Position numbers and translations under genes: made by a program. This document shows positions 23,429 through 34,377 of a DNA stretch of 64,000 nucleotides, piece by piece. The notes under the pieces are model-generated. The model did not search any database. It saw nothing but the letters and a program-made list of their open reading frames with translations, and was not told the origin of the DNA. The stretch is from Escherichia coli (GTDB lineage: Bacteria; Pseudomonadota; Gammaproteobacteria; Enterobacterales; Enterobacteriaceae), in NCBI RefSeq assembly GCF_022846255.1, contig NZ_AP025682.1; one strand, 5' to 3'. Numbering within the stretch: position 1 is the first letter of the stretch; the number at the start of each line of letters is the position of its first letter.

Positions 23429-24364
23429 TCAAAGCATTTCCCGTGCCTGAGCTGCAATTCCGGCAGCATCAAATCCATGATGCTGACGCAACCACCCACG
23501 ATCCGCCGCTGCGGCATATTCTCCATCCATAATGCCTGCGCGTTTTAATTTGATCCCCGTTCCGGCCTCTGCCAACACTTCCGCGACCAGGCTACCAAGG
23601 CCGCCATTGACGTTATGCTCTTCAACCGTCATCACTGCTTTGCATCCTTTTAACGCTGCCAGCAATGCTTTGGTGTCGCATGGGCGAATCGACGGTACGC
23701 TGACAACTGTAGCCGCGATACCAGACTGCGCTAAAAGTTCTGCGGCATCGACCACTTCATGAACGGTAGAGCCTGTGGCTACCAGCGCCAGTTCGCTGCC
23801 CTCGCGCAAAGTCACCACGGCACCTGGTACAAATCGGTAGTCCTCATCGTGGATTTCCGGCAGGGCTTTACCGTCCATACGGATATAAACAGGCCCCTGA
23901 TAGCGAAGAGCATAATCAATCACCTGACGGCACTCCCGAGGTGAAGACGGGGCAAAGATTTGAATATTGCCGAAACCACGCATAACCGCAATGTCATCAA
24001 TCGCATGATGCGTGCTCGCCAGCGGTCCATAACTCGCCCCGGCATTCAGACCAAACAATTTTACGTTGGTAAAGTTGTAGCAGACATCAACCTTGATTTG
24101 CTCGTTAGCGCGAGCGATAAGAAATGGCGCGGCATTGCAGGTAACAGCCACCTTGCCGCCCAGCGCCAGCCCGGCAGCGGCACCAACCATGCTCTGTTCG
24201 GCAATACCCACATTCACCAGTCGGTCAGGAAATTGCTTAATAAAGGGAGCAATTTTTGCCGTAGACGTTGAATCAGCCACTACAGGCACCAAATCGATCC
24301 CCTCATTTACGGCATCGATAAATGCCTGAACCATCACATTTGCCAGATGTTCACTGTTACGCAT
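23429..24364 (-). CDS. Transketolase C-terminal (pyrimidine-binding) subunit of a split transketolase
   Basis: 311 aa, MRNSEHLANVMVQAFIDAVNEGIDLVPVVADSTSTAKIAPFIKQFPDRLVNVGIAEQSMVGAAAGLALGGK...; overlaps the N-subunit gene by 8 bp. Confidence 0.85.
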   Translation of the reverse strand: MRNSEHLANVMVQAFIDAVNEGIDLVPVVADSTSTAKIAPFIKQFPDRLVNVGIAEQSMVGAAAGLALGGKVAVTCNAAPFLIARANEQIKVDVCYNFTNVKLFGLNAGASYGPLASTHHAIDDIAVMRGFGNIQIFAPSSPRECRQVIDYALRYQGPVYIRMDGKALPEIHDEDYRFVPGAVVTLREGSELALVATGSTVHEVVDAAELLAQSGIAATVVSVPSIRPCDTKALLAALKGCKAVMTVEEHNVNGGLGSLVAEVLAEAGTGIKLKRAGIMDGEYAAAADRGWLRQHHGFDAAGIAAQAREML

Positions 24365-25187
24365 CTTTGAGTTCCTTCAGTGCCTGTTCAATTTCATCGC
24401 CTTTCGGCACCCGGTGATGCCATTCCGCACGCCCTTGTATAAAGGAAATGCCTGCCCCTTTAGTGGTGTGGGCAATCACCACATTCGGTTTGCCTTCCTG
24501 TTTAAGCCCTTCAAGCGTCGCGACAACCGAAGCCATATCATTGCCCTGACATTCGGTAACCTGCATACCGAATGCCAGCCATTTCTCTGCCAGAGGATCG
24601 GTGTTCATGATTTCGCGCGTTGGCCCGGCTAATTGCAGATTATTTTTGTCATTAATAATGACCAGGTTATCAAGCCCGTAATGCGCCGCCGCCAGTGCAG
24701 CTTCCCAGTTACTGCCCTCAGCCAGCTCACCATCGCCAGTAATTAAGAAGATACGACGACGGCTTTGACTTTTTTTCGCCGCCAGCGCAAGTCCTACAGC
24801 CACAGGGAAACCATGTCCCAGTGCTCCGGTATTCAGTTCAATACCTGGCGTTTTTTGCCGAACCGGATGGCCGGGTAAGTGTGAATTTGGCTGCTGATAA
24901 GTGGAAAGCCATTCCAGTGGGAAGAATCCTGCTTCCGCCAGCACGCAGTAGTAACATCCAACAGCATGGCCTTTTGACTGAATGTATATATCCCGGTCAT
25001 CGTCGTGAAGGCGATCCGGGGCGACATTGAGAATACGAAAATAGAGTGCGGTCAGTAATTCAACCTGAGAGAGATCGGCCCCAGTGTGTCCACCTGCCGG
25101 GCTATTGGCATTTAAGCGCACGATATGGCAGCGTACCGCCCGCGCTTTACGCTCAAGGGTCTGGATATCATAGCTATAGGGATTCAT
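24357..25187 (-). CDS. Transketolase N-terminal (thiamine-diphosphate binding) subunit
   Basis: 276 aa with TPP-binding GDGELAEGSNWEAALAAAHYGLDNLVIINDKN motif; first gene of a two-gene unit divergent from the regulator. Confidence 0.85.
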   Translation of the reverse strand: MNPYSYDIQTLERKARAVRCHIVRLNANSPAGGHTGADLSQVELLTALYFRILNVAPDRLHDDDRDIYIQSKGHAVGCYYCVLAEAGFFPLEWLSTYQQPNSHLPGHPVRQKTPGIELNTGALGHGFPVAVGLALAAKKSQSRRRIFLITGDGELAEGSNWEAALAAAHYGLDNLVIINDKNNLQLAGPTREIMNTDPLAEKWLAFGMQVTECQGNDMASVVATLEGLKQEGKPNVVIAHTTKGAGISFIQGRAEWHHRVPKGDEIEQALKELKDA

Positions 25188-25367
25188 TTAATACCTCTGA
25201 ATTTATTTTCAACATGGAATATTTATTCCACCGGGGACTAAAAAAACCAGAAATCCCAGGGCGTTGCGCGGCAAGACTTACGCTGCTGCATCATACTCAG
25301 GAACATTCTGCCTCCTTACACCGTCAGTTACGTGTCCGGGTAATCATCAGTTGACCTGATATCATCT

Positions 25368-25381
25368 TGAATATATATTCA
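25368..25381. promoter_or_regulatory. Palindrome TGAATATATATTCA in the transketolase / regulator divergent promoter region; candidate operator
   Basis: Direct reading; the same 12-bp core GAATATATATTC recurs at 26729..26740 upstream of the kinase-transporter operon. Confidence 0.45.
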
Positions 25382-25549
25382 ATAATGATTCTTTATTCAA
25401 TTATGCCGCCTGTTTTTTATTTTTGTCCATCGCTGATTTTAAGGATTGGTTAAAGTTAGAACTCCATCACACTTAACTGTCTTCTTTTTTCGCGTATGAT
25501 AAAAGCCTCTAAGATAAGGGCGGTACGTTAATGATTTACGGGGAAATAT

Positions 25550-26500
25550 ATGGCTAAGCAGGATGAACAGCGGCTACTGGTGAAGATCGCCACTCTTTAC
25601 TATCTTGAGGGGCGAAAACAGTCTGACATCGCCCAACTTCTCTCGCTTTCTCAGTCATTTATCTCCAGAGCGCTAACCCGTTGCCAGAAAGAAGGCGTGG
25701 TTAAAATCAGCGTTGTCCAGCCGTCAAATATCTTTCTCAATCTGGAAAAAGGCATTGAAGAGCGTTACGGCATTAAACAAGCGATTGTTGTCGATACCGA
25801 AGATGATGCCACTGACCATACCATTAAACGTGCTATCGGCTCTGCCGCCGCGCACTATCTGGAAACGCGTTTAAGACCAAAAGATTTCATTGGCGTCTCT
25901 TCCTGGAGTTCTACGATTCGCGCGATGGTCGATGAAGTTCACGCCCAAAACTTAAAAGCCAGCGGCGTTATTCAGCTGCTGGGCGGCGTGGGGCCAAACG
26001 GCAATGTGCAGGCAACTATTTTGACACAGACCCTGGCCCAGCATCTGAATTGCGAAGCCTGGTTGCTTCCTTCTCAAAGCATTGAAGGTTCGGTAGAAGA
26101 GAAAAAACGCCTGGTGGCAAGCCAGGATGTGGCTGACGTTATCGCCAGATTTGACGACGTCGATATCGCCATTGTCGGCATCGGTATCCTTGAACCCTCG
26201 CAGTTGCTAAAAACCTCGGGCAACTATTATCACGAGGATATGTTACAGGTACTGGCGGATCGCGGTGCTGTGGGCGATATCTGCCTGCACTACTACGATA
26301 AACATGGTCAGCCCGTGTTGCAGGACGATGAAGATCCAGTGATTGGTATGGCACTGGATAAAATCAAAAAATGCCCGAATGTGGTGGCACTGGCGGGCGG
26401 CAAAGACAAAGTTGCCGCCATCAAAGGCGCCATGCAGGGTGGTTATATTGATGTTTTGATCACTGATTTCCCCACCGCCAGAATGCTGATTGCGGATTAA
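25550..26500 (+). CDS. SorC/DeoR-family sugar-binding transcriptional regulator
   Basis: 316 aa; N-terminal HTH (QSDIAQLLSLSQSFISRALTRCQKEGVV) and C-terminal sugar-phosphate-binding domain typical of SorC/DeoR/EryD regulators. Confidence 0.85.
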   Translation: MAKQDEQRLLVKIATLYYLEGRKQSDIAQLLSLSQSFISRALTRCQKEGVVKISVVQPSNIFLNLEKGIEERYGIKQAIVVDTEDDATDHTIKRAIGSAAAHYLETRLRPKDFIGVSSWSSTIRAMVDEVHAQNLKASGVIQLLGGVGPNGNVQATILTQTLAQHLNCEAWLLPSQSIEGSVEEKKRLVASQDVADVIARFDDVDIAIVGIGILEPSQLLKTSGNYYHEDMLQVLADRGAVGDICLHYYDKHGQPVLQDDEDPVIGMALDKIKKCPNVVALAGGKDKVAAIKGAMQGGYIDVLITDFPTARMLIAD

Positions 26501-26523
26501 TCCTCTCCTCCCTTTCTTCTGCC

Positions 26524-26552
26524 CGCCTTTGCGAAAAAATCTTCTCGCAAAG
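26524..26552 (+). terminator. Hairpin downstream of the regulator gene; candidate intrinsic terminator
   Basis: cctttgcgaaaaaatcttctcgcaaagg forms a 9-bp stem; the 3' flank is not strongly T-rich, so strength is uncertain. Confidence 0.35.
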
Positions 26553-26646
26553 GCGCTTGCTTAAAAATCCTTTAATATCAATAAACTGAAATGATTCAAC
26601 AATCCTGTTTCTCGAGGCTTTCTCACCCTGTCACCACGCTTCTAAG

Positions 26647-26662
26647 TGTGATAGCCAGCACA
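26647..26662. promoter_or_regulatory. CRP-like site TGTGA-N6-GCACA upstream of the kinase-transporter operon
   Basis: tgtgatagccagcaca; 4/5 + 5/5 match to the CRP half-sites TGTGA/TCACA; about 190 bp upstream of the kinase start. Confidence 0.35.
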
Positions 26663-26728
26663 TTTGATGATTTTTTCTCTAGCTCAGGAAGAATAATCTG
26701 GCTAAGGTATAAATAAATAATCAGCATC

Positions 26729-26740
26729 GAATATATATTC
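26729..26740. promoter_or_regulatory. Second copy of the GAATATATATTC palindrome; candidate operator of the kinase-transporter-dehydrogenase operon
   Basis: Direct reading; identical 12-bp core to 25369..25380. Confidence 0.45.
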
Positions 26741-26850
26741 ACGCCTTAACACAAAATGTCACAGCAGGGCCTGATGAAGTAATAACGTGACCATGAGGAA
26801 CGCCTCATCTCCTTCCACGCCAGGATGCAATGTGACTCAGGAGACTACCT

Positions 26851-28371
26851 ATGTTTGCAGGAAATAAAGAGTTCGTTGTTGCGTTGGATGAGGGTACCAC
26901 CAATGTAAAAGCCATCGCACTTGATGGTTTCGGTAACGTGGTGGCGAAGTTTTCTCAACCACTGGCTATTCAGACGCCACGTGAAGGCTGGGTTGAGCAA
27001 TCCGGGGAAGCGTTAATCTCTGCCTCGCTTGATGTTATTGCCCAGGCCATCAACCACGTGGGGGCAGAAAATGTAGCGGCTCTGGCTATCAGTAATCAGC
27101 GTGAAACGGCTATCGGCTGGTATCGTCAGAGTGGAAAACCACTCAATGCGGCGATTACCTGGCAATGCACGCGCAGTGCAGAGTTTTGTGAAACACTTCG
27201 TCGCGAGGGCAAAGAGCAGCAAATTAAAACGACTACAGGCCTGCCTATCGCCCCGCTATTTTCCGCGTCCAAGATGCGTTGGCTACTGGAATCTACACCT
27301 GAGGGTGTGCAACTTGCCGACCAGGGTGAAATTTGTCTCGGCACCATTGATGCCTGGTTGCTATGGAACTTGACTGCTGGCGATTCATTTTGCTGCGACT
27401 ACTCTAACGCCGCGCGAACTCAATTACTTAACCTGAAAACAGGCGAGTGGGATGAGGAAATGCTGGCGTTGTTTCACATCCCACGCGCTGCATTGCCAGA
27501 AATTAAACCTTCCAGTGGCCTGTTCGGTTATACCCGAGGACTTAAAACAATTCCGGATGGTATTCCCGTCATGGCGATGGTGGGCGATTCTCACGCCGCT
27601 CTTTTTGGTCATGCGTTGGGAGAAGCGGGATGTGTGAAGGCGACCTATGGGACCGGTTCTTCCGTCATGGCCCCCGTCAACTCTGCTCAGTGTGATATCG
27701 CCACACTTGCCACAACCATTGCCTGGCATGATGGCGAAAATATTATTTACGGTCTGGAAGGAAATATCCCCCACACCGGCGATGCCGTGGCATGGATGGC
27801 TGACAGCACCGGTTTAAGTGAACTGACAGACGCGGAGCTGGCCCACGAACTGAATACCCTGCCAGCCTCAGTGGATTCGACTATGGGTGTTTATTTTGTT
27901 CCTGCTCTCACTGGCCTGGGCGCGCCATGGTGGGATGACAGCGCTCGCGGCGTGGTGTGTGGCTTAAGCCGTGGCGTAAAGCGCGCGCATTTGATTCGTG
28001 CCGCAATGGAATCAATCACTTATCAAATTGCAGATGTAGTGGAGGCAATGCAACAGCATGATGATTTTCACTTATCGGCGTTAATGGTGGATGGCGGCCC
28101 GACCAAAAATGACTGGTTGATGCAATATCAGGCGGATCTGCTGGGTTGCCCGGTGATGCGCAGTGATGTGCCAGAGCTTTCAGCCATTGGTGCGGGCCTG
28201 CTCGCCCGCAAAGCGCTTATCCCCGGTACCGTTGCAGATTTAAAAGCGTTATTAACTGAACACAGTGAATTTAAACCGGACATGGCGCGTCATCAGCGAC
28301 TGCAAAAGAGATGGCAGGAGTGGCGTCATGCGGTAAACAGAACATTATGGAAACCGGCATCGTCAATTTGA
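26851..28371 (+). CDS. FGGY-family carbohydrate kinase (xylulokinase / glycerol kinase-like)
   Basis: 506 aa, MFAGNKEFVVALDEGTTNVKAIALDGFGNVVAKF...; FGGY N- and C-terminal domain signatures. Confidence 0.85.
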   Translation: MFAGNKEFVVALDEGTTNVKAIALDGFGNVVAKFSQPLAIQTPREGWVEQSGEALISASLDVIAQAINHVGAENVAALAISNQRETAIGWYRQSGKPLNAAITWQCTRSAEFCETLRREGKEQQIKTTTGLPIAPLFSASKMRWLLESTPEGVQLADQGEICLGTIDAWLLWNLTAGDSFCCDYSNAARTQLLNLKTGEWDEEMLALFHIPRAALPEIKPSSGLFGYTRGLKTIPDGIPVMAMVGDSHAALFGHALGEAGCVKATYGTGSSVMAPVNSAQCDIATLATTIAWHDGENIIYGLEGNIPHTGDAVAWMADSTGLSELTDAELAHELNTLPASVDSTMGVYFVPALTGLGAPWWDDSARGVVCGLSRGVKRAHLIRAAMESITYQIADVVEAMQQHDDFHLSALMVDGGPTKNDWLMQYQADLLGCPVMRSDVPELSAIGAGLLARKALIPGTVADLKALLTEHSEFKPDMARHQRLQKRWQEWRHAVNRTLWKPASSI

Positions 28372-28474
28372 CGAACAAGACTAACCAACGGAAGGAGAAT
28401 ACCGGCCCATAAATAATTCAGGCTTTACGTTGTTTCACCGTACCCGACAATAACAACACAGAGAGAACATTGTC

Positions 28475-29410
28475 ATGAAATTACGTTTAACACTGTTAAC
28501 CGCTGCGACCCTGACTGCTCTTTCTTTTTCTGCTCATGCGGTAGAAAAAGGAACCATTATGATTATGGTCAATTCACTGGATAATCCTTATTACGCCTCG
28601 GAAGCGAAAGGTGCCAGTGAAAAAGCCCAGCAACTGGGATATAAAACGACCATTCTTTCTCATGGTGAAGATGTCAAAAAACAGAATGAACTGATCGATA
28701 CTGCAATTGGTAAAAAAGTTCAGGGCATTATTTTAGATAATGCCGACTCCACTGCCAGTGTTGCAGCCATTGAAAAAGCAAAAAAAGCAGGTATTCCCGT
28801 TATATTAATTAATCGCGAAATACCTGTGGATGATGTTGCACTGGTGCAAATTACCCATAATAACTTCCAGGCTGGCTCGGAAGTTGCCAACGTATTTGTC
28901 GAGAAAATGGGAGAGAAAGGAAAATATGCCGAACTCACCTGTAATCTTGCTGATAATAATTGCGTAACTCGCTCGAAATCTTTCCATCAGGTCATTGACC
29001 AGTTCCCTGAAATGGTCAGCGTGGCGAAGCAAGATGCCAAAGGCACGTTAATTGATGGCAAACGGATAATGGACAGTATTCTGCAAGCCCATCCCGATGT
29101 AAAAGGGGTGATTTGTGGTAATGGTCCGGTTGCACTGGGAGCTATCGCAGCACTGAAAGCAGCCAATCGCAATGACGTTATTGTTGTCGGCATTGATGGC
29201 AGTAACGATGAGCGCGATGCCGTGAAAGCCGAATCATTGCAGGCTACCGTGATGTTACAAGCGCAAGCCATTGCCGCGCAGGGGGTTACCGATTTGGATA
29301 ATTACCTGCAAAAAGGAGTTAAACCAGCCAAACAGCGGGTGATGTTCCGCGGCATTCTGATAACCAAAGATAACGCAGATAAAGTCCAGGATTTCAATAT
29401 CAAATCCTGA
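28475..29410 (+). CDS. Periplasmic sugar-binding protein of an ABC transporter (RbsB-like)
   Basis: 311 aa with signal peptide MKLRLTLLTAATLTALSFSAHA; periplasmic binding protein type I fold. Confidence 0.85.
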   Translation: MKLRLTLLTAATLTALSFSAHAVEKGTIMIMVNSLDNPYYASEAKGASEKAQQLGYKTTILSHGEDVKKQNELIDTAIGKKVQGIILDNADSTASVAAIEKAKKAGIPVILINREIPVDDVALVQITHNNFQAGSEVANVFVEKMGEKGKYAELTCNLADNNCVTRSKSFHQVIDQFPEMVSVAKQDAKGTLIDGKRIMDSILQAHPDVKGVICGNGPVALGAIAALKAANRNDVIVVGIDGSNDERDAVKAESLQATVMLQAQAIAAQGVTDLDNYLQKGVKPAKQRVMFRGILITKDNADKVQDFNIKS

Positions 29411-29456
29411 TCCCAGGTCGTTGCGCCCTCACAATGAGGGCGCAGAGGAGAATATT

Positions 29457-30077
29457 ATGGATAAAAAAGTCTGGCTGGCGCTGGCAATTCTGAGCCTGGG
29501 TGGATGTCGCATCGTCTCGCAGCAGGAACTTGCCGATCTCAAATCCCCGCCTAATCCTCATATGGCAAATATCGATCAGACCTGGCAGAAAAATATCGTG
29601 CCGCAGGTGGTAGAAAATGCACGTCCGGTTGCGGAGTTAATGGCGGCGCTACAGGCAGAAAAAGATGTCGATGCTGCCTGTAAAACGCTGGGCTATCGTT
29701 CTCAGGAAGAAAACCCGTGTATTTTCTACGTTAAGGTCGAAGGTGGCATCACCAATATTGATGCGAAATCCCGTAGCGGAAAAATGACCATCACAGATAT
29801 CAGCGGCACAAATATTGTCGTGCAGACGGGGCCAACTCTTCGCGGCACGCTTCTGCGAGATGCATATAAAGGTGCAAGCTATGAGCATTTTAACGATCAG
29901 GTTTTATTTGGTGAATATGGTCGTGCTATCAATGAGCAAGCCATCAATATGATTCAGTCGGCAAAGCTTAAAACCGGGGAAACGGTTCAGGTTTATGGCG
30001 TATTTTCTGCATGGGATATTCCGCAAACTATCCCGGATATAACGCCTGCGAAAATAGCCAGGGCGGGAGGCGAGTAA
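29457..30077 (+). CDS. DUF2291-like predicted lipoprotein embedded in the ABC transporter operon
   Basis: MDKKVWLALAILSLGGC... with a lipobox LSLGGC; start chosen at the internal Met with the signal peptide rather than the track start at 29421. Confidence 0.65.
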   Translation: MDKKVWLALAILSLGGCRIVSQQELADLKSPPNPHMANIDQTWQKNIVPQVVENARPVAELMAALQAEKDVDAACKTLGYRSQEENPCIFYVKVEGGITNIDAKSRSGKMTITDISGTNIVVQTGPTLRGTLLRDAYKGASYEHFNDQVLFGEYGRAINEQAINMIQSAKLKTGETVQVYGVFSAWDIPQTIPDITPAKIARAGGE

Positions 30078-30078
30078 T

Positions 30079-31623
30079 ATGTTGCCGCAAGAAATTGACA
30101 CCCCCCAGACTGATGAATCACCTGTAATCATAGAAACGCATGACTTATCGCGTATTTATCCGGGTGTGGTGGCGTTAGATAACGTGAATTACCGTGTCTA
30201 TCGCAATAGAGTGAATGTGCTTATTGGTGAAAACGGTGCGGGTAAATCCACAATGATGAAAATGCTGGCGGGGGTTGAAACACCTTCCTCAGGCAAGATC
30301 ATTCTTGATGGTAAAGAAGTTACCCTAAATTCTACCCATCAGGCCGAAAAACATGGAATTAGTATCATTTTTCAGGAACTGAATTTATTCCCGAATATGA
30401 ATGTCATAGATAACATTTTCATGGCGAATGAATTTTTTCAGAAAGGGAAGATTAACGAAAAATATCAGTATGAATTAGCCAAATCTTTATTAGAGAGACT
30501 GGAGTTGGACGTTGATCCCTATACCCAACTGGGAGAACTTGGTATTGGTCATCAGCAACTGGTGGAGATTGCCCGTGCCCTTTCTAAAGATACCCGGGTA
30601 CTGATTATGGATGAACCGACCTCGGCCCTCAGCCAGTCGGAAGTCAAAGTACTTTTCAATGTGATCGCACAACTGAAGCGCCGTGGTGTCACCATCATTT
30701 ATATCTCCCACCGTCTGGAAGAGTTGATGGAGATTGGCGATTTCATCACCATTTTCCGTGATGGTCGCTTTATTAGTGAACGCGCAGTGAGCGATGCCAG
30801 TATTCCGTGGATCATCGCACAAATGGTCGGTGATAAGAAAAAACATTTTGATTATCAACCAGCTACACAAGGTGACACTGTACTGGCGGTACTGGGGTTA
30901 ACGGCGCTGCATCCCAGCGGTGGTTACAAACTCAATGATGTGACATTCAACCTGCGTAAAGGCGAAGTTATCGGCATTTACGGCTTGCTGGGCGCAGGAC
31001 GTACTGAGCTATTTAAAGGACTGGTGGGCCTGATGCCCTGTCAGAGTGGGAAGATCCTGCTTAATGGTGAAACCATCGACAAATGCCATTTCCAGGCGCG
31101 GCTCAAAAAGGGGCTGGCGTTGGTGCCAGAAGATCGCCAGGGCGAAGGCGTCGTTCAGATGATGTCGATTCAGTCCAATATGACGCTATCCGATTTCAGC
31201 CTGCAAGGTTTTCGCCGTGCCTGGAAATGGCTGAATCCGCAAAAAGAGAGCGCCAGTGTGAAAGAGATGATCCAGCAACTGGCGATCAAAGTCAGTGATG
31301 CCGAACTCCCTATTACCTCACTCAGCGGCGGTAACCAGCAAAAAGTGGTACTTGGCAAAGCGTTGATGACCCAGCCACAGGTGGTGTTTCTTGATGAACC
31401 CACACGCGGCATTGATGTTGGCGCAAAAACCGACGTCTATCAGCTGGTGGGAAAAATGGCACAACAGGGGCTGGCAGTCATGTTCTCTTCTTCAGAACTC
31501 GATGAAGTCATGGCACTGGCAGATCGCATTCTGGTGATGGCTGATGGCCGTATTACCGCTGATCTACCCCGGGGCGAAGTCACCCGAGAGAAACTGATCG
31601 CGGCTTCAACACCTCAAGATTAA
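30079..31623 (+). CDS. Sugar ABC transporter ATPase with duplicated ATP-binding domains (RbsA-like)
   Basis: 514 aa; Walker A GENGAGKST in the first half, a second nucleotide-binding domain, signature LSGGNQQK. Confidence 0.9.
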   Translation: MLPQEIDTPQTDESPVIIETHDLSRIYPGVVALDNVNYRVYRNRVNVLIGENGAGKSTMMKMLAGVETPSSGKIILDGKEVTLNSTHQAEKHGISIIFQELNLFPNMNVIDNIFMANEFFQKGKINEKYQYELAKSLLERLELDVDPYTQLGELGIGHQQLVEIARALSKDTRVLIMDEPTSALSQSEVKVLFNVIAQLKRRGVTIIYISHRLEELMEIGDFITIFRDGRFISERAVSDASIPWIIAQMVGDKKKHFDYQPATQGDTVLAVLGLTALHPSGGYKLNDVTFNLRKGEVIGIYGLLGAGRTELFKGLVGLMPCQSGKILLNGETIDKCHFQARLKKGLALVPEDRQGEGVVQMMSIQSNMTLSDFSLQGFRRAWKWLNPQKESASVKEMIQQLAIKVSDAELPITSLSGGNQQKVVLGKALMTQPQVVFLDEPTRGIDVGAKTDVYQLVGKMAQQGLAVMFSSSELDEVMALADRILVMADGRITADLPRGEVTREKLIAASTPQD

Positions 31624-31640
31624 TCAGGCTGGAATTTCTT

Positions 31641-32708
31641 ATGAATCAGAAATATATGATCTATATGTACCTGTTGAAAGCCAGAACGTTTATCGCTCTG
31701 CTGTTAGTGATCGCCTTCTTTAGCGTGATGGTGCCTAACTTCCTGACGGCCTCTAACCTGCTGATTATGACTCAACACGTTGCGATTACCGGGCTGCTGG
31801 CAATCGGAATGACGCTGGTGATCCTGACAGGCGGCATCGATCTTTCCGTCGGCGCGGTAGCGGGGATCTGCGGAATGGTTGCCGGGGCTCTGCTAACAAA
31901 CGGCCTGCCATTGTGGAGCGGCGATATTATTTTCTTCAACGTACCGGAAGTGATCCTCTGCGTGGCGGTATTTGGCATTTTAGTGGGACTGGTGAATGGT
32001 GCGGTAATCACCCGCTTTGGTGTCGCGCCCTTTATCTGCACCCTCGGTATGATGTACGTCGCCCGTGGCTCTGCCCTGCTGTTTAATGATGGCAGCACTT
32101 ACCCCAATCTCAACGGCATGGAGGCACTGGGCAACACGGGTTTCGCCACCCTTGGTTCTGGCACGTTTTTAGGCGTTTATTTGCCAATCTGGCTGATGAT
32201 TGGCTTTTTGATTTTAGGCTACTGGATCACGACTAAAACGCCGCTCGGTCGTTATATCTATGCCATTGGTGGCAATGAATCTGCCGCGCGACTGGCAGGC
32301 GTACCCATCGTAAAAGTCAAAGTGTTCGTCTATGCGTTCTCCGGATTATGCGCCGCATTTGTCGGTTTGATTGTTGCCTCGCAGCTGCAAACCGCTCACC
32401 CAATGACCGGCAATATGTTCGAAATGGATGCTATCGGTGCCACGGTTCTTGGTGGAACTGCGCTGGCAGGTGGTCGGGGACGTGTCTCTGGCTCGATTAT
32501 CGGTGCCTTTGTCATTGTCTTCCTCGCCGATGGCATGGTGATGATGGGGGTCAGTGATTTCTGGCAAATGGTCATTAAAGGCCTCGTTATCGTCACCGCC
32601 GTGGTAGTCGATCAGTTCCAGCAAAAATTGCAAAACAAAGTCATTTTGATGCGTCGCCATGAAGAAAAGATGGCCGCCGCACCTGCCGTAAAACCGCTTT
32701 CCAGTTAA
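31641..32708 (+). CDS. Sugar ABC transporter permease (RbsC-like)
   Basis: 355 aa polytopic membrane protein of the monosaccharide ABC permease family. Confidence 0.85.
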   Translation: MNQKYMIYMYLLKARTFIALLLVIAFFSVMVPNFLTASNLLIMTQHVAITGLLAIGMTLVILTGGIDLSVGAVAGICGMVAGALLTNGLPLWSGDIIFFNVPEVILCVAVFGILVGLVNGAVITRFGVAPFICTLGMMYVARGSALLFNDGSTYPNLNGMEALGNTGFATLGSGTFLGVYLPIWLMIGFLILGYWITTKTPLGRYIYAIGGNESAARLAGVPIVKVKVFVYAFSGLCAAFVGLIVASQLQTAHPMTGNMFEMDAIGATVLGGTALAGGRGRVSGSIIGAFVIVFLADGMVMMGVSDFWQMVIKGLVIVTAVVVDQFQQKLQNKVILMRRHEEKMAAAPAVKPLSS

Positions 32709-32761
32709 TTAACATCATTCCGCCGGGCATTAAATTGCCCGGCTTATACAGGGGAAAAAAT

Positions 32762-33559
32762 ATGCAACGTAATTTTCAGGGTAAGACTGTAGTTATTACC
32801 GGGGCATGCCGGGGAATTGGGGCCGGGATCGCTGAACGCTTCGCCCGCGATGGCGCAAATCTGGTGATGGTTTCTAACGCTGCACGCGTGCATGAAACTG
32901 CTGAGCAACTGCGCCAATGTTATCAGGCTGACATTTTGTCATTAGAAGTCGATGTGACAGATGAAGCGCAAGTACAGGCACTCTATGAACAAGCGGCTGC
33001 ACGTTTTGGCAGCATCGATGTTTCCATTCAGAATGCAGGCATTATCACCATCGATTATTTTGATCGAATGCCGGCTGCTGATTTCGAAAAAGTGCTGGCG
33101 GTGAACACTACGGCAGTCTGGCTCTGCTGCCGGGAAGCAGCCAAATATATGGTGAAACAAAATCACGGCTGCCTGATCAACACCTCTTCTGGCCAGGGAC
33201 GTCAGGGGTTTATCTATACCCCACACTATGCAGCCAGCAAAATGGGTGTGATCGGCATTACGCAAAGCCTGGCGCACGAGTTAGCGCAGTGGAATATCAC
33301 TGTTAACGCCTTCTGCCCTGGTATTATCGAAAGCGAAATGTGGGACTACAACGACCGCGTATGGGGAGAAATTCTCAGTACCGATGACAAGCGTTATGGC
33401 AAAGGCGAGCTTATGGCGGAATGGGTGGAAGGTATTCCGATGAAGCGTGCCGGTAAACCTGAAGATGTTGCCGGACTGGTTGCCTTCCTCGCCTCTGACG
33501 ATGCGCGTTATCTCACCGGTCAAACCATCAACATCGACGGCGGCCTGATTATGTCGTAA
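32762..33559 (+). CDS. Short-chain dehydrogenase/reductase (polyol / sugar dehydrogenase-like)
   Basis: MQRNFQGKTVVITGACRGIGAGIAERFA...; TGxxxGIG Rossmann motif and catalytic YxxxK; ATG at 32762 preferred over the upstream TTG-initiated track start. Confidence 0.8.
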   Translation: MQRNFQGKTVVITGACRGIGAGIAERFARDGANLVMVSNAARVHETAEQLRQCYQADILSLEVDVTDEAQVQALYEQAAARFGSIDVSIQNAGIITIDYFDRMPAADFEKVLAVNTTAVWLCCREAAKYMVKQNHGCLINTSSGQGRQGFIYTPHYAASKMGVIGITQSLAHELAQWNITVNAFCPGIIESEMWDYNDRVWGEILSTDDKRYGKGELMAEWVEGIPMKRAGKPEDVAGLVAFLASDDARYLTGQTINIDGGLIMS

Positions 33560-33591
33560 TGCCCCTGCGGGCTACTAAGAGAGATATCAAA

Positions 33592-34377
33592 ATGATCGCA
33601 AAAGATTTTGCTCAACAATTGTTTGATCTCCACGATCGCGTCGCCTTTGTCACTGGCGCAGGTAGCGGTATCGGACAAATGATCGCTCTGGCTTTAGCCA
33701 GCGCAGGCGCACGAGTGGTGTGTTTTGATCTACGGGAAGATGGCGGACTCAAAGAGACGGTTAATCATATCGAAGCACTTGGCGGACAAGCCTTGTATTA
33801 CACGGGCGATGTTCGGGAATTGAGAGATCTTCGCGCAGCAGTCGCTCTGGCAAAAACACATTTTGGTCGTCTGGATATTGCCGTAAACGCCGCTGGAATC
33901 GCTAACGCAAACCCGGCGCTGGAGATGGAAAGCGAGCAATGGCAACGCGTTATCGATATCAACCTGACTGGTGTGTGGAATTCCTGTAAGGCGGAAGCCG
34001 AGTTAATGGTAGAGAACGGAGGCGGCTCGATTATAAATATTGCGTCAATGTCCGGGATTATCGTCAATCGCGGTCTGGAACAGGCTCACTACAACAGCTC
34101 CAAAGCAGGCGTGATTCATTTATCTAAAAGTCTTGCGATGGAATGGGTGAGTAAAGGGATCCGTGTGAACTCAATCAGTCCAGGATATACCGCAACACCA
34201 ATGAATACCCGACCTGAAATGGTGCATCAGACTCGGGAGTTTGAAATCCAGACGCCGATTCAGCGGATGGCGAAAGTGGAAGAGATGGCGGGTCCAGCGC
34301 TGTTCCTTGCCAGCGATGCGGCGTCGTTCTGCACTGGTGTTGATCTGGTGGTCGATGGTGGTTTTGTCTGCTGGTAA
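33592..34377 (+). CDS. Second short-chain dehydrogenase/reductase
   Basis: MIAKDFAQQLFDLHDRVAFVTGAGSGIGQMIALALA...; SDR motifs; start at 33592 preferred for its upstream gagag Shine-Dalgarno, with 33559 as alternative. Confidence 0.8.
   Translation: MIAKDFAQQLFDLHDRVAFVTGAGSGIGQMIALALASAGARVVCFDLREDGGLKETVNHIEALGGQALYYTGDVRELRDLRAAVALAKTHFGRLDIAVNAAGIANANPALEMESEQWQRVIDINLTGVWNSCKAEAELMVENGGGSIINIASMSGIIVNRGLEQAHYNSSKAGVIHLSKSLAMEWVSKGIRVNSISPGYTATPMNTRPEMVHQTREFEIQTPIQRMAKVEEMAGPALFLASDAASFCTGVDLVVDGGFVCW

Follow-up and report, generated by a model that had tools for sequence, protein, structure and literature searches.

The window, by which we mean the whole stretch of 64,000 nucleotides of Escherichia coli DNA that was analysed, carries an island between entD and hokE/ybdK. 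This island was found in 630 of 5,426 complete E. coli genomes, always as a single copy and always on the chromosome. Its coding features are as follows.

23429..25187, minus strand: aptA (24357-25187) and aptB (23429-24364), a split transketolase, recognised as transketolase N- and C-terminal halves
25550..26500, plus strand: SorC/DeoR-type "sugar-binding transcriptional regulator" of 316 aa (NCBIfam, RefSeq annotation)
26851..34377, plus strand: operon presumably driven by the kinase-side promoter (from ORFs and family matches; coordinates of the last gene transferred from the related genome L001)
26851-28371, plus strand: aplK, an FGGY kinase of 506 aa
28475-29410, plus strand: ribose-type binding protein, followed by a DUF2291 protein
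30079-31623, plus strand: ABC ATPase
31641-32708, plus strand: permease
after the permease to about 34377, plus strand: two SDR oxidoreductases

The ten genes of the island correspond to ECSF_RS02670-02715 of E. coli SE15, in the same order and likewise next to entD, and the protein accessions are identical in SE15 and in L001. The gene set of the kinase/transporter/oxidoreductase operon is that of ECSF_RS02670-02700, while aptA and aptB, which are divergent from the regulator gene, are ECSF_RS02710 and ECSF_RS02715. The SE15 cluster serves as the reference D-apiose degradation cluster, with aplK encoding the kinase and aptA/aptB the split transketolase (PMC13001218, J Bacteriol 2026). That study defines the cluster as aplK together with both transketolase genes, aptA and aptB, within ten genes and adjacent to entD (PMC13001218), and both the gene order and the gene products of the window's island are those of this definition. 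The cluster was described as specific to ST131, STc14 and some E. fergusonii, whose carriers grow on D-apiose as sole carbon source (PMC13001218). The sugar-utilisation operon which a preliminary description of this DNA had postulated can thus be named as part of the D-apiose cluster, with growth on apiose shown in the same study, and the aplK operon is a catabolic operon for a secondary carbon source.

The closest solved relatives of the binding protein are 5ibq and 4ry0 (E = 2e-79), which we take to be the Rhizobium etli protein of the apiose study. D-apiose is a plant sugar, and its degradation pathway was reportedly described by Carter et al. in 2018. The regulator gave below-cut-off NCBIfam matches to B. 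subtilis-type DeoR (2.4e-59) and to LsrR (136 bits, against a cut-off of 486). Our literature search found no paper linking apiose genes with CRP and none on the regulation of the island; CRP, "regulator" and glucose are not mentioned in PMC13001218. In one E. coli genome (NZ_OZ040716.1), an IS903B element (IS5-like) is inserted within the stretch of regulator, kinase and binding protein genes, an insertion by which the cluster may have been inactivated or its regulation changed.

The regulator gene (25550-26500) and the kinase gene (26851-28371) are separated by a non-coding gap of 350 bp, in which the following features were recognised or predicted.

26524..26555, plus strand: hairpin after the regulator stop codon, with 14-nt arms that are 93% complementary
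26644..26665, no strand assigned: predicted CRP site 1, AAGTGTGATAGCCAGCACATTT, with the core 16-mer at 26647-26662 and its centre at 26654.5
26666..26679, plus strand: A/T-rich conserved stretch, GATGATTTTTTCTC, with a mean majority fraction of 0.79 versus 0.49 in the upstream flank
26680..26685, plus strand: putative -35-like hexamer TAGCTC, weak (2/6 to TTGACA), TAGCYC among orthologs
26703..26708, plus strand: putative -10-like hexamer TAAGGT (3/6 match), TAnnnT conserved
26709..26742, plus strand: tandem palindromic operator of the kinase side, ATAAATAAATAATCA-GCAT-CGAATATATATTCAC, 42.5 bits, 18/34 columns invariant
26743..26850, plus strand: rest of the predicted aplK 5' leader, the whole leader comprising about 135 nt from about 26715, with the Shine-Dalgarno sequence GGAG at 26840-26843

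The core 16-mer reads TGTGATAGCCAGCACA (tgtgatagccagcaca) and agrees with TGTGA-N6-TCACA at nine of ten half-site positions, as the preliminary description had stated. Its remark that the match is imperfect comes down to a single base, G instead of T at 26658, which validated sites (glpT/glpA, tdc) carry too. The operator which it had placed about 80 bp away was likewise recovered: a perfect palindrome, GAATATATATTC, is located at 26729-26740, 80 bp from CRP site 1 from centre to centre. As CRP site 1 lies 196 bp from the kinase ATG, a long leader must be assumed for the kinase operon.

Counting matches to the bare consensus was uninformative. With up to one mismatch allowed, the pattern is not rarer in the 64-kb window than expected by chance (one match versus 1.3 expected), and at least one match occurred in 81 of 100 shuffles of the window. 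The bare count was therefore replaced by a matrix built from published sites, a symmetric 22-bp CRP matrix derived from 118 non-redundant E. coli sites that are in RegulonDB and were recovered by genomic SELEX (Shimada et al. 2011, Table S4; PMC3105977). With this matrix, AAGTGTGATAGCCAGCACATTT scored 17.1 bits and was the top match among all of the roughly 64,000 positions of the window. This value exceeds those of 86% of the validated sites (102/118) and is about equal to the 17.3 bits of the lac P1 CRP site in the same matrix; good A/T flanks together with T26652 and A26657 raise it. The preliminary description had proposed such matrix scoring as a check, and the score proved to be high rather than low. 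The two best CRP matches in the whole window, of 17.1 and 14.0 bits, are found in the two control regions of the island.

A match arising by chance and having no regulatory role has to be weighed against these figures. It would be in keeping with the single pattern match against 1.3 expected and with about 1.8 matches of at least 17.1 bits expected per 5-Mb genome. The probability per position of reaching 17.1 bits is 3.7e-7, however, which corresponds to 0.023 matches per 64 kb, and only 4 of 200 simulated windows attained this score. For a 350-bp intergenic region the chance expectation is 1.3e-4 to 4.7e-4, that is, P < 5e-4 for this gap, the one place where such a site makes sense. A chance match is also hard to reconcile with the distribution of the site among related bacteria.

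A scan of species with one genome each yielded 75 loci with relatives of the kinase, about 27 of which share the layout aptBA <- -> regulator, gap, kinase. These same-layout loci belong to about 11 genera (Escherichia, Citrobacter, Klebsiella, Raoultella, Serratia, Trabulsiella, Cedecea, Phytobacter, Mixta, Pantoea and Enterobacter), and in all of them the best CRP match 5' of the kinase gene is the orthologous site. Most orthologous sites scored 16-19 bits, with weaker outliers of 13.5 bits in L022 (Phytobacter) and 12.5 bits in L035. The alignment of 24 orthologous promoters showed TGTGA to be invariant (24/24) and GCACA to be 97% conserved, three of its columns being invariant and two kept in 22-23 sequences. 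Conservation drops in the central spacer columns to 12-19 of the 24 sequences (50-79%), with variants that include TAGCCA, TTGCCA, TTCTCA, TTATCA and TTTTTA, and the 44-bp flank upstream of the site is essentially unalignable (mean majority fraction 0.49, 24 sequences). A similar picture emerged at short evolutionary distance: among seven Escherichia sequences, the spacer base C/T at 26656 is the sole variable base of the 22-mer, and several substitutions occur in the 30 bp just upstream. Judged from the alignment, conserved half-sites combined with a drifting spacer and flank are the pattern expected of a CRP site. Since the site is kept across genera amid unalignable flanks, and since variation within Escherichia strikes flank and spacer and spares the half-sites, we regard a match without regulatory role as highly improbable.

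Conservation also bears on the identity of the bound protein. Within the 16-mer, the key contacts of CRP are with the G in position 4 and the C in position 13 (PMC3105977); the corresponding bases, G26650 and C26659, are invariant in all 24 orthologs. The non-consensus G26658 is conserved in 22 of 24 sequences although CRP prefers T at this position, and conservation runs about 15 bp 3' of the site, beyond the CRP footprint. The conserved G26658 and 3' flank could reflect contacts of the alpha C-terminal domain, a second constraint or a different protein. The last of these possibilities amounts to a palindrome that is merely CRP-like and bound by the island's regulator or another dimeric factor, and indeed a palindrome alone does not name its protein. 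The alignment columns, however, follow the CRP matrix in the half-sites, in T26652 and A26657, in the A/T flanks and in the free centre. Furthermore, the motif assigned to the local regulator, a tandem of TGAATA-N4-ATTCA, is distinct and occurs at three places in the window, none of which is CRP site 1. FNR recognises TTGAT-N4-ATCAA, and the Sxy-dependent CRP-S sites read TGCGA-N6-TCGCA with C at position 6, whereas the site described here has GTGA and not TTGA, and TGTGA and not TGCGA. A binder other than CRP thus appears very unlikely to us. The palindrome at 26647-26662 is, with high probability on this comparative evidence, a functional CRP site. The preliminary description had read it as a sign of catabolite control, and this reading is now supported in silico by the 17.1-bit score and by a half-site footprint extending across about 11 genera.

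Downstream of CRP site 1, the A/T-rich stretch at 26666..26679 may be a contact region for the RNA polymerase alpha C-terminal domain. In the -35-like TAGCTC, T and G are invariant (24/24), and a variable spacer of 17 bp separates this box from the -10-like TAAGGT. In the latter, all 24 sequences have T1 and A2 and 23 have T6, and the middle varies in distant orthologs (TAATCT, TATCGT), a column pattern which, for this putative box, is that of a -10 hexamer. From CRP site 1 to the -10-like box the alignment is ungapped in 22 of 24 sequences. A scan with the sigma-70 consensus of the plus strand of 26500-26850 gave no promoter-like match, which fits a weak, activator-dependent promoter rather than the absence of a promoter. 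Class I CRP sites are centred near -61.5, -71.5, -82.5 or -92.5. A start near 26715, which we predict from conservation and consider somewhat likely, would place the centre of CRP site 1 at about -60.5 and thereby in a class I position; -60.5 is common to many activator sites in RegulonDB (nanA, aldB, glpFKX, ulaA, agaZ).

The tandem palindrome, TGAATAAAgAATCA-N4-TGAATATATATTCA, is common to both control regions of the island, and a third, weaker copy lies at 25197-25230 on the minus strand, 41 bp upstream of the aptA ATG. When 31 orthologous operators, none of them from the window, were used to train a matrix, only three places in the 64 kb scored positive, namely 25367-25400, 26709-26742 and 25197-25230. 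The block on the aptA side, TTGAATAAAGAATCA-TTAT-TGAATATATATTCAA at 25367-25400, is near-identical to that at 26709-26742, and the only other exact copy of GAATATATATTC in the window (25369-25380) lies inside it. The SorC-type regulator of the island (25550-26500) probably uses the tandem palindrome as its operator. A further box at about 26570-26585, about 75 bp upstream of CRP site 1, is moderately conserved; E. coli has TTTAATATCAATAAA there, and most other genera have TTATATTTCAATA. As TTATATTTCAATA resembled an inverted operator, it would have allowed a repression loop around CRP site 1; the operator matrix placed it at rank 48 in the window with -25 bits, and it was rejected as an auxiliary upstream operator.

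CRP might bind here and act otherwise than by simple class I activation, through another start or helical phase, through interplay with the SorC-type repressor via DNA bending, or by tuning. The start is a prediction, and E. coli has an alternative -10 sequence (TATAAA, 26708-26713) with which CRP would sit at about -65.5, off-phase for class I. CRP bends DNA by about 87 degrees (PMC3105977), the operator is just 80 bp away, and the sub-optimal G26658 is conserved. Other genera, however, have TATTAA and similar sequences in place of TATAAA but retain TAnnnT at 26703-26708 together with its spacing to CRP site 1, and the score of -25 bits for the putative upstream operator removed the support for a looping variant. 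We consider these other modes of CRP action unlikely. In our preferred reading, cAMP-CRP uses the palindrome as a class I activator site at the promoter from which the aplK/ABC-transporter/oxidoreductase operon is transcribed, an assignment we deem likely from score, conservation and promoter geometry. The poor matches of the -35 and -10 candidates and the need for a long leader count against it.

The leader predicted for the kinase operon contains a conserved long-range helix, in which GUCACA (26758-26763) pairs with UGUGAC (26831-26836) and CCUG (26770-26773) with CAGG (26821-26824). This helix stops 3 nt before the Shine-Dalgarno GGAG and encloses an inner hairpin at 26793-26808; in the ortholog L014 it reads GUCGCG/CGUGGC, where one pair is doubly compensated. 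Even at permissive thresholds, no Rfam family matched within 25100-26950. A mini-ORF of 8 codons within the leader (26756-26782, ATG at 26756, MSQQGLMK) is probably meaningless, as it is without a Shine-Dalgarno sequence and neither its frame nor its length is kept in Klebsiella and Raoultella. At the other end of the gap, compensatory changes such as GTCTTTGCG/CGCAAAGAC and ACCTTTACGC/GCGTAAAGGT preserve the hairpin at 26524-26555 in other genera. The tract behind it is rich in A and not in U, so that the hairpin is not a canonical intrinsic terminator; because the U-tract is absent, we can only infer a terminator role, by which the hairpin would separate the regulator gene from the kinase promoter.

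The second control region is located in the divergent aptA/regulator region and contains the following predicted elements.

25367..25400, minus strand: tandem operator of the aptAB promoter, TTGAATAAAGAATCATTATTGAATATATATTCAA, 51.9 bits
25453..25474, no strand assigned: CRP-like site 2, AAGTTAGAACTCCATCACACTT, 14.0 bits, second-best match in the window, with one good half-site

CRP-like site 2 lies 85-95 bp from the regulator ATG. Control regions of type A were scanned at 27 loci, and in 25 of them the operator palindrome is 89 bp away from this site. The predicted aptA promoter consists of TGGACA and CATAAT separated by 18 bp. The aptA side thus repeats the layout of the kinase side, a CRP-like site followed by a -10 sequence and a tandem operator, and TAAGGT and the predicted CATAAT of aptA are equidistant from their operators. 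With respect to the predicted promoters, CRP-like site 2 is at about -70.5 for aptA and at about -43.5 for the regulator gene, and by its position it could serve the aptA promoter, the regulator promoter or both.

CRP-like site 2 is kept in both cluster architectures that we encountered. In the second architecture (loci L027-L049, L053, L055 and L074-L076), found in Leclercia, Kosakonia, Phytobacter, C. braakii, Mangrovibacter and other hosts, the regulator gene is divergent from a single aptA-aptB...aplK operon. Its one control region has a counterpart of CRP-like site 2 scoring 11-16 bits in all loci but L048, with operator palindromes 94-98 bp away. In the kinase relatives of 65-79% identity (Leclercia, Kosakonia, Phytobacter and others), the kinase gene lies inside the aptA-led operon, and for this reason these loci have no equivalent of CRP site 1.

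We infer occupancy by CRP, the promoter hexamers, the transcription start, the sign of regulation and the pairing of repressor and operator, from which the following mechanism is proposed for the kinase side. In the absence of glucose, cAMP-CRP would bind TGTGA-N6-GCACA centred at 26654.5. From its position at about -60.5 it would recruit RNA polymerase via the alpha C-terminal domain to the weak promoter (TAGCTC, 17 bp, TAAGGT), with a start at about 26715. The SorC-type repressor, bound to 26709-26742 and thus spanning the edge of the -10 sequence and the start, would block transcription until an apiose-derived inducer appears. Requiring both activation by CRP and relief from the repressor, the aplK operon would be expressed when apiose is present and a preferred sugar is absent. 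One can speculate further that a three-part nucleoprotein switch operates at both promoters, in which a CRP-induced bend and a weak promoter are combined with a tandem SorC-type operator; a conserved structured leader abutting the ribosome-binding site would come next. CRP bending and a tetrameric repressor might then interact as in CytR/CRP or deoP2-like cooperativity, and the leader of about 135 nt might act as an RNA-level checkpoint for a metabolite of the apiose pathway; we consider this elaboration quite unlikely.

The D-apiose cluster is a lineage marker of pandemic ST131 and STc14 and was proposed to constitute a niche-defining gut nutrient pathway (PMC13001218). Any advantage conferred by the cluster hinges on whether and when it is expressed. 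The strong and conserved CRP site predicts a pathway that is off with preferred sugars and on under carbon limitation in the presence of apiose. For a cluster of undescribed regulation, the comparison further provides a precise operator motif for the SorC-type regulator, a second CRP-like site and a candidate promoter.

Compared with known systems, CRP site 1 is a predicted addition to the CRP regulon and not a new kind of element, the proposed control being in kind textbook catabolite control. The CRP site of lac P1 is a class I site centred at -61.5. CRP site 1 resembles it in the about equal matrix score, in one imperfect half-site, in the weak -35 sequence downstream and in a repressor operator at or just after the start; the proposed logic, inducer present and glucose absent, is likewise the same. 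In contrast to lac P1, the repressor is of the SorC/DeoR type with a tandem palindromic operator and not LacI, the predicted leader is long (about 135 nt) and structured, and the start and CRP dependence are predictions here. The core TGTGA-N6-GCACA is shared with the validated sites of glpTQ/glpABC (AAATGTGAATTGCCGCACACAT) and tdcABCDEFG (ATTTGTGAGTGGTCGCACATAT), both of which serve secondary carbon and energy metabolism. Those sites differ in position, lying at about -41.5 to -43.5 (class II) or at -90.5, whereas -60.5 is deduced here. The lsr locus resembles the island in bringing together a repressor of the SorC family, an FGGY kinase, an ABC transporter of the ribose type and CRP, the last being predicted in our case, and the CRP sites of lsrACDBFG are at -71.5 and -142.5 (RegulonDB). 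In lsr, however, the regulator and kinase genes are divergent from the transporter genes and the substrate is autoinducer-2; the regulator of the island matches LsrR weakly, and its presumed operator motif differs from that of lsr.
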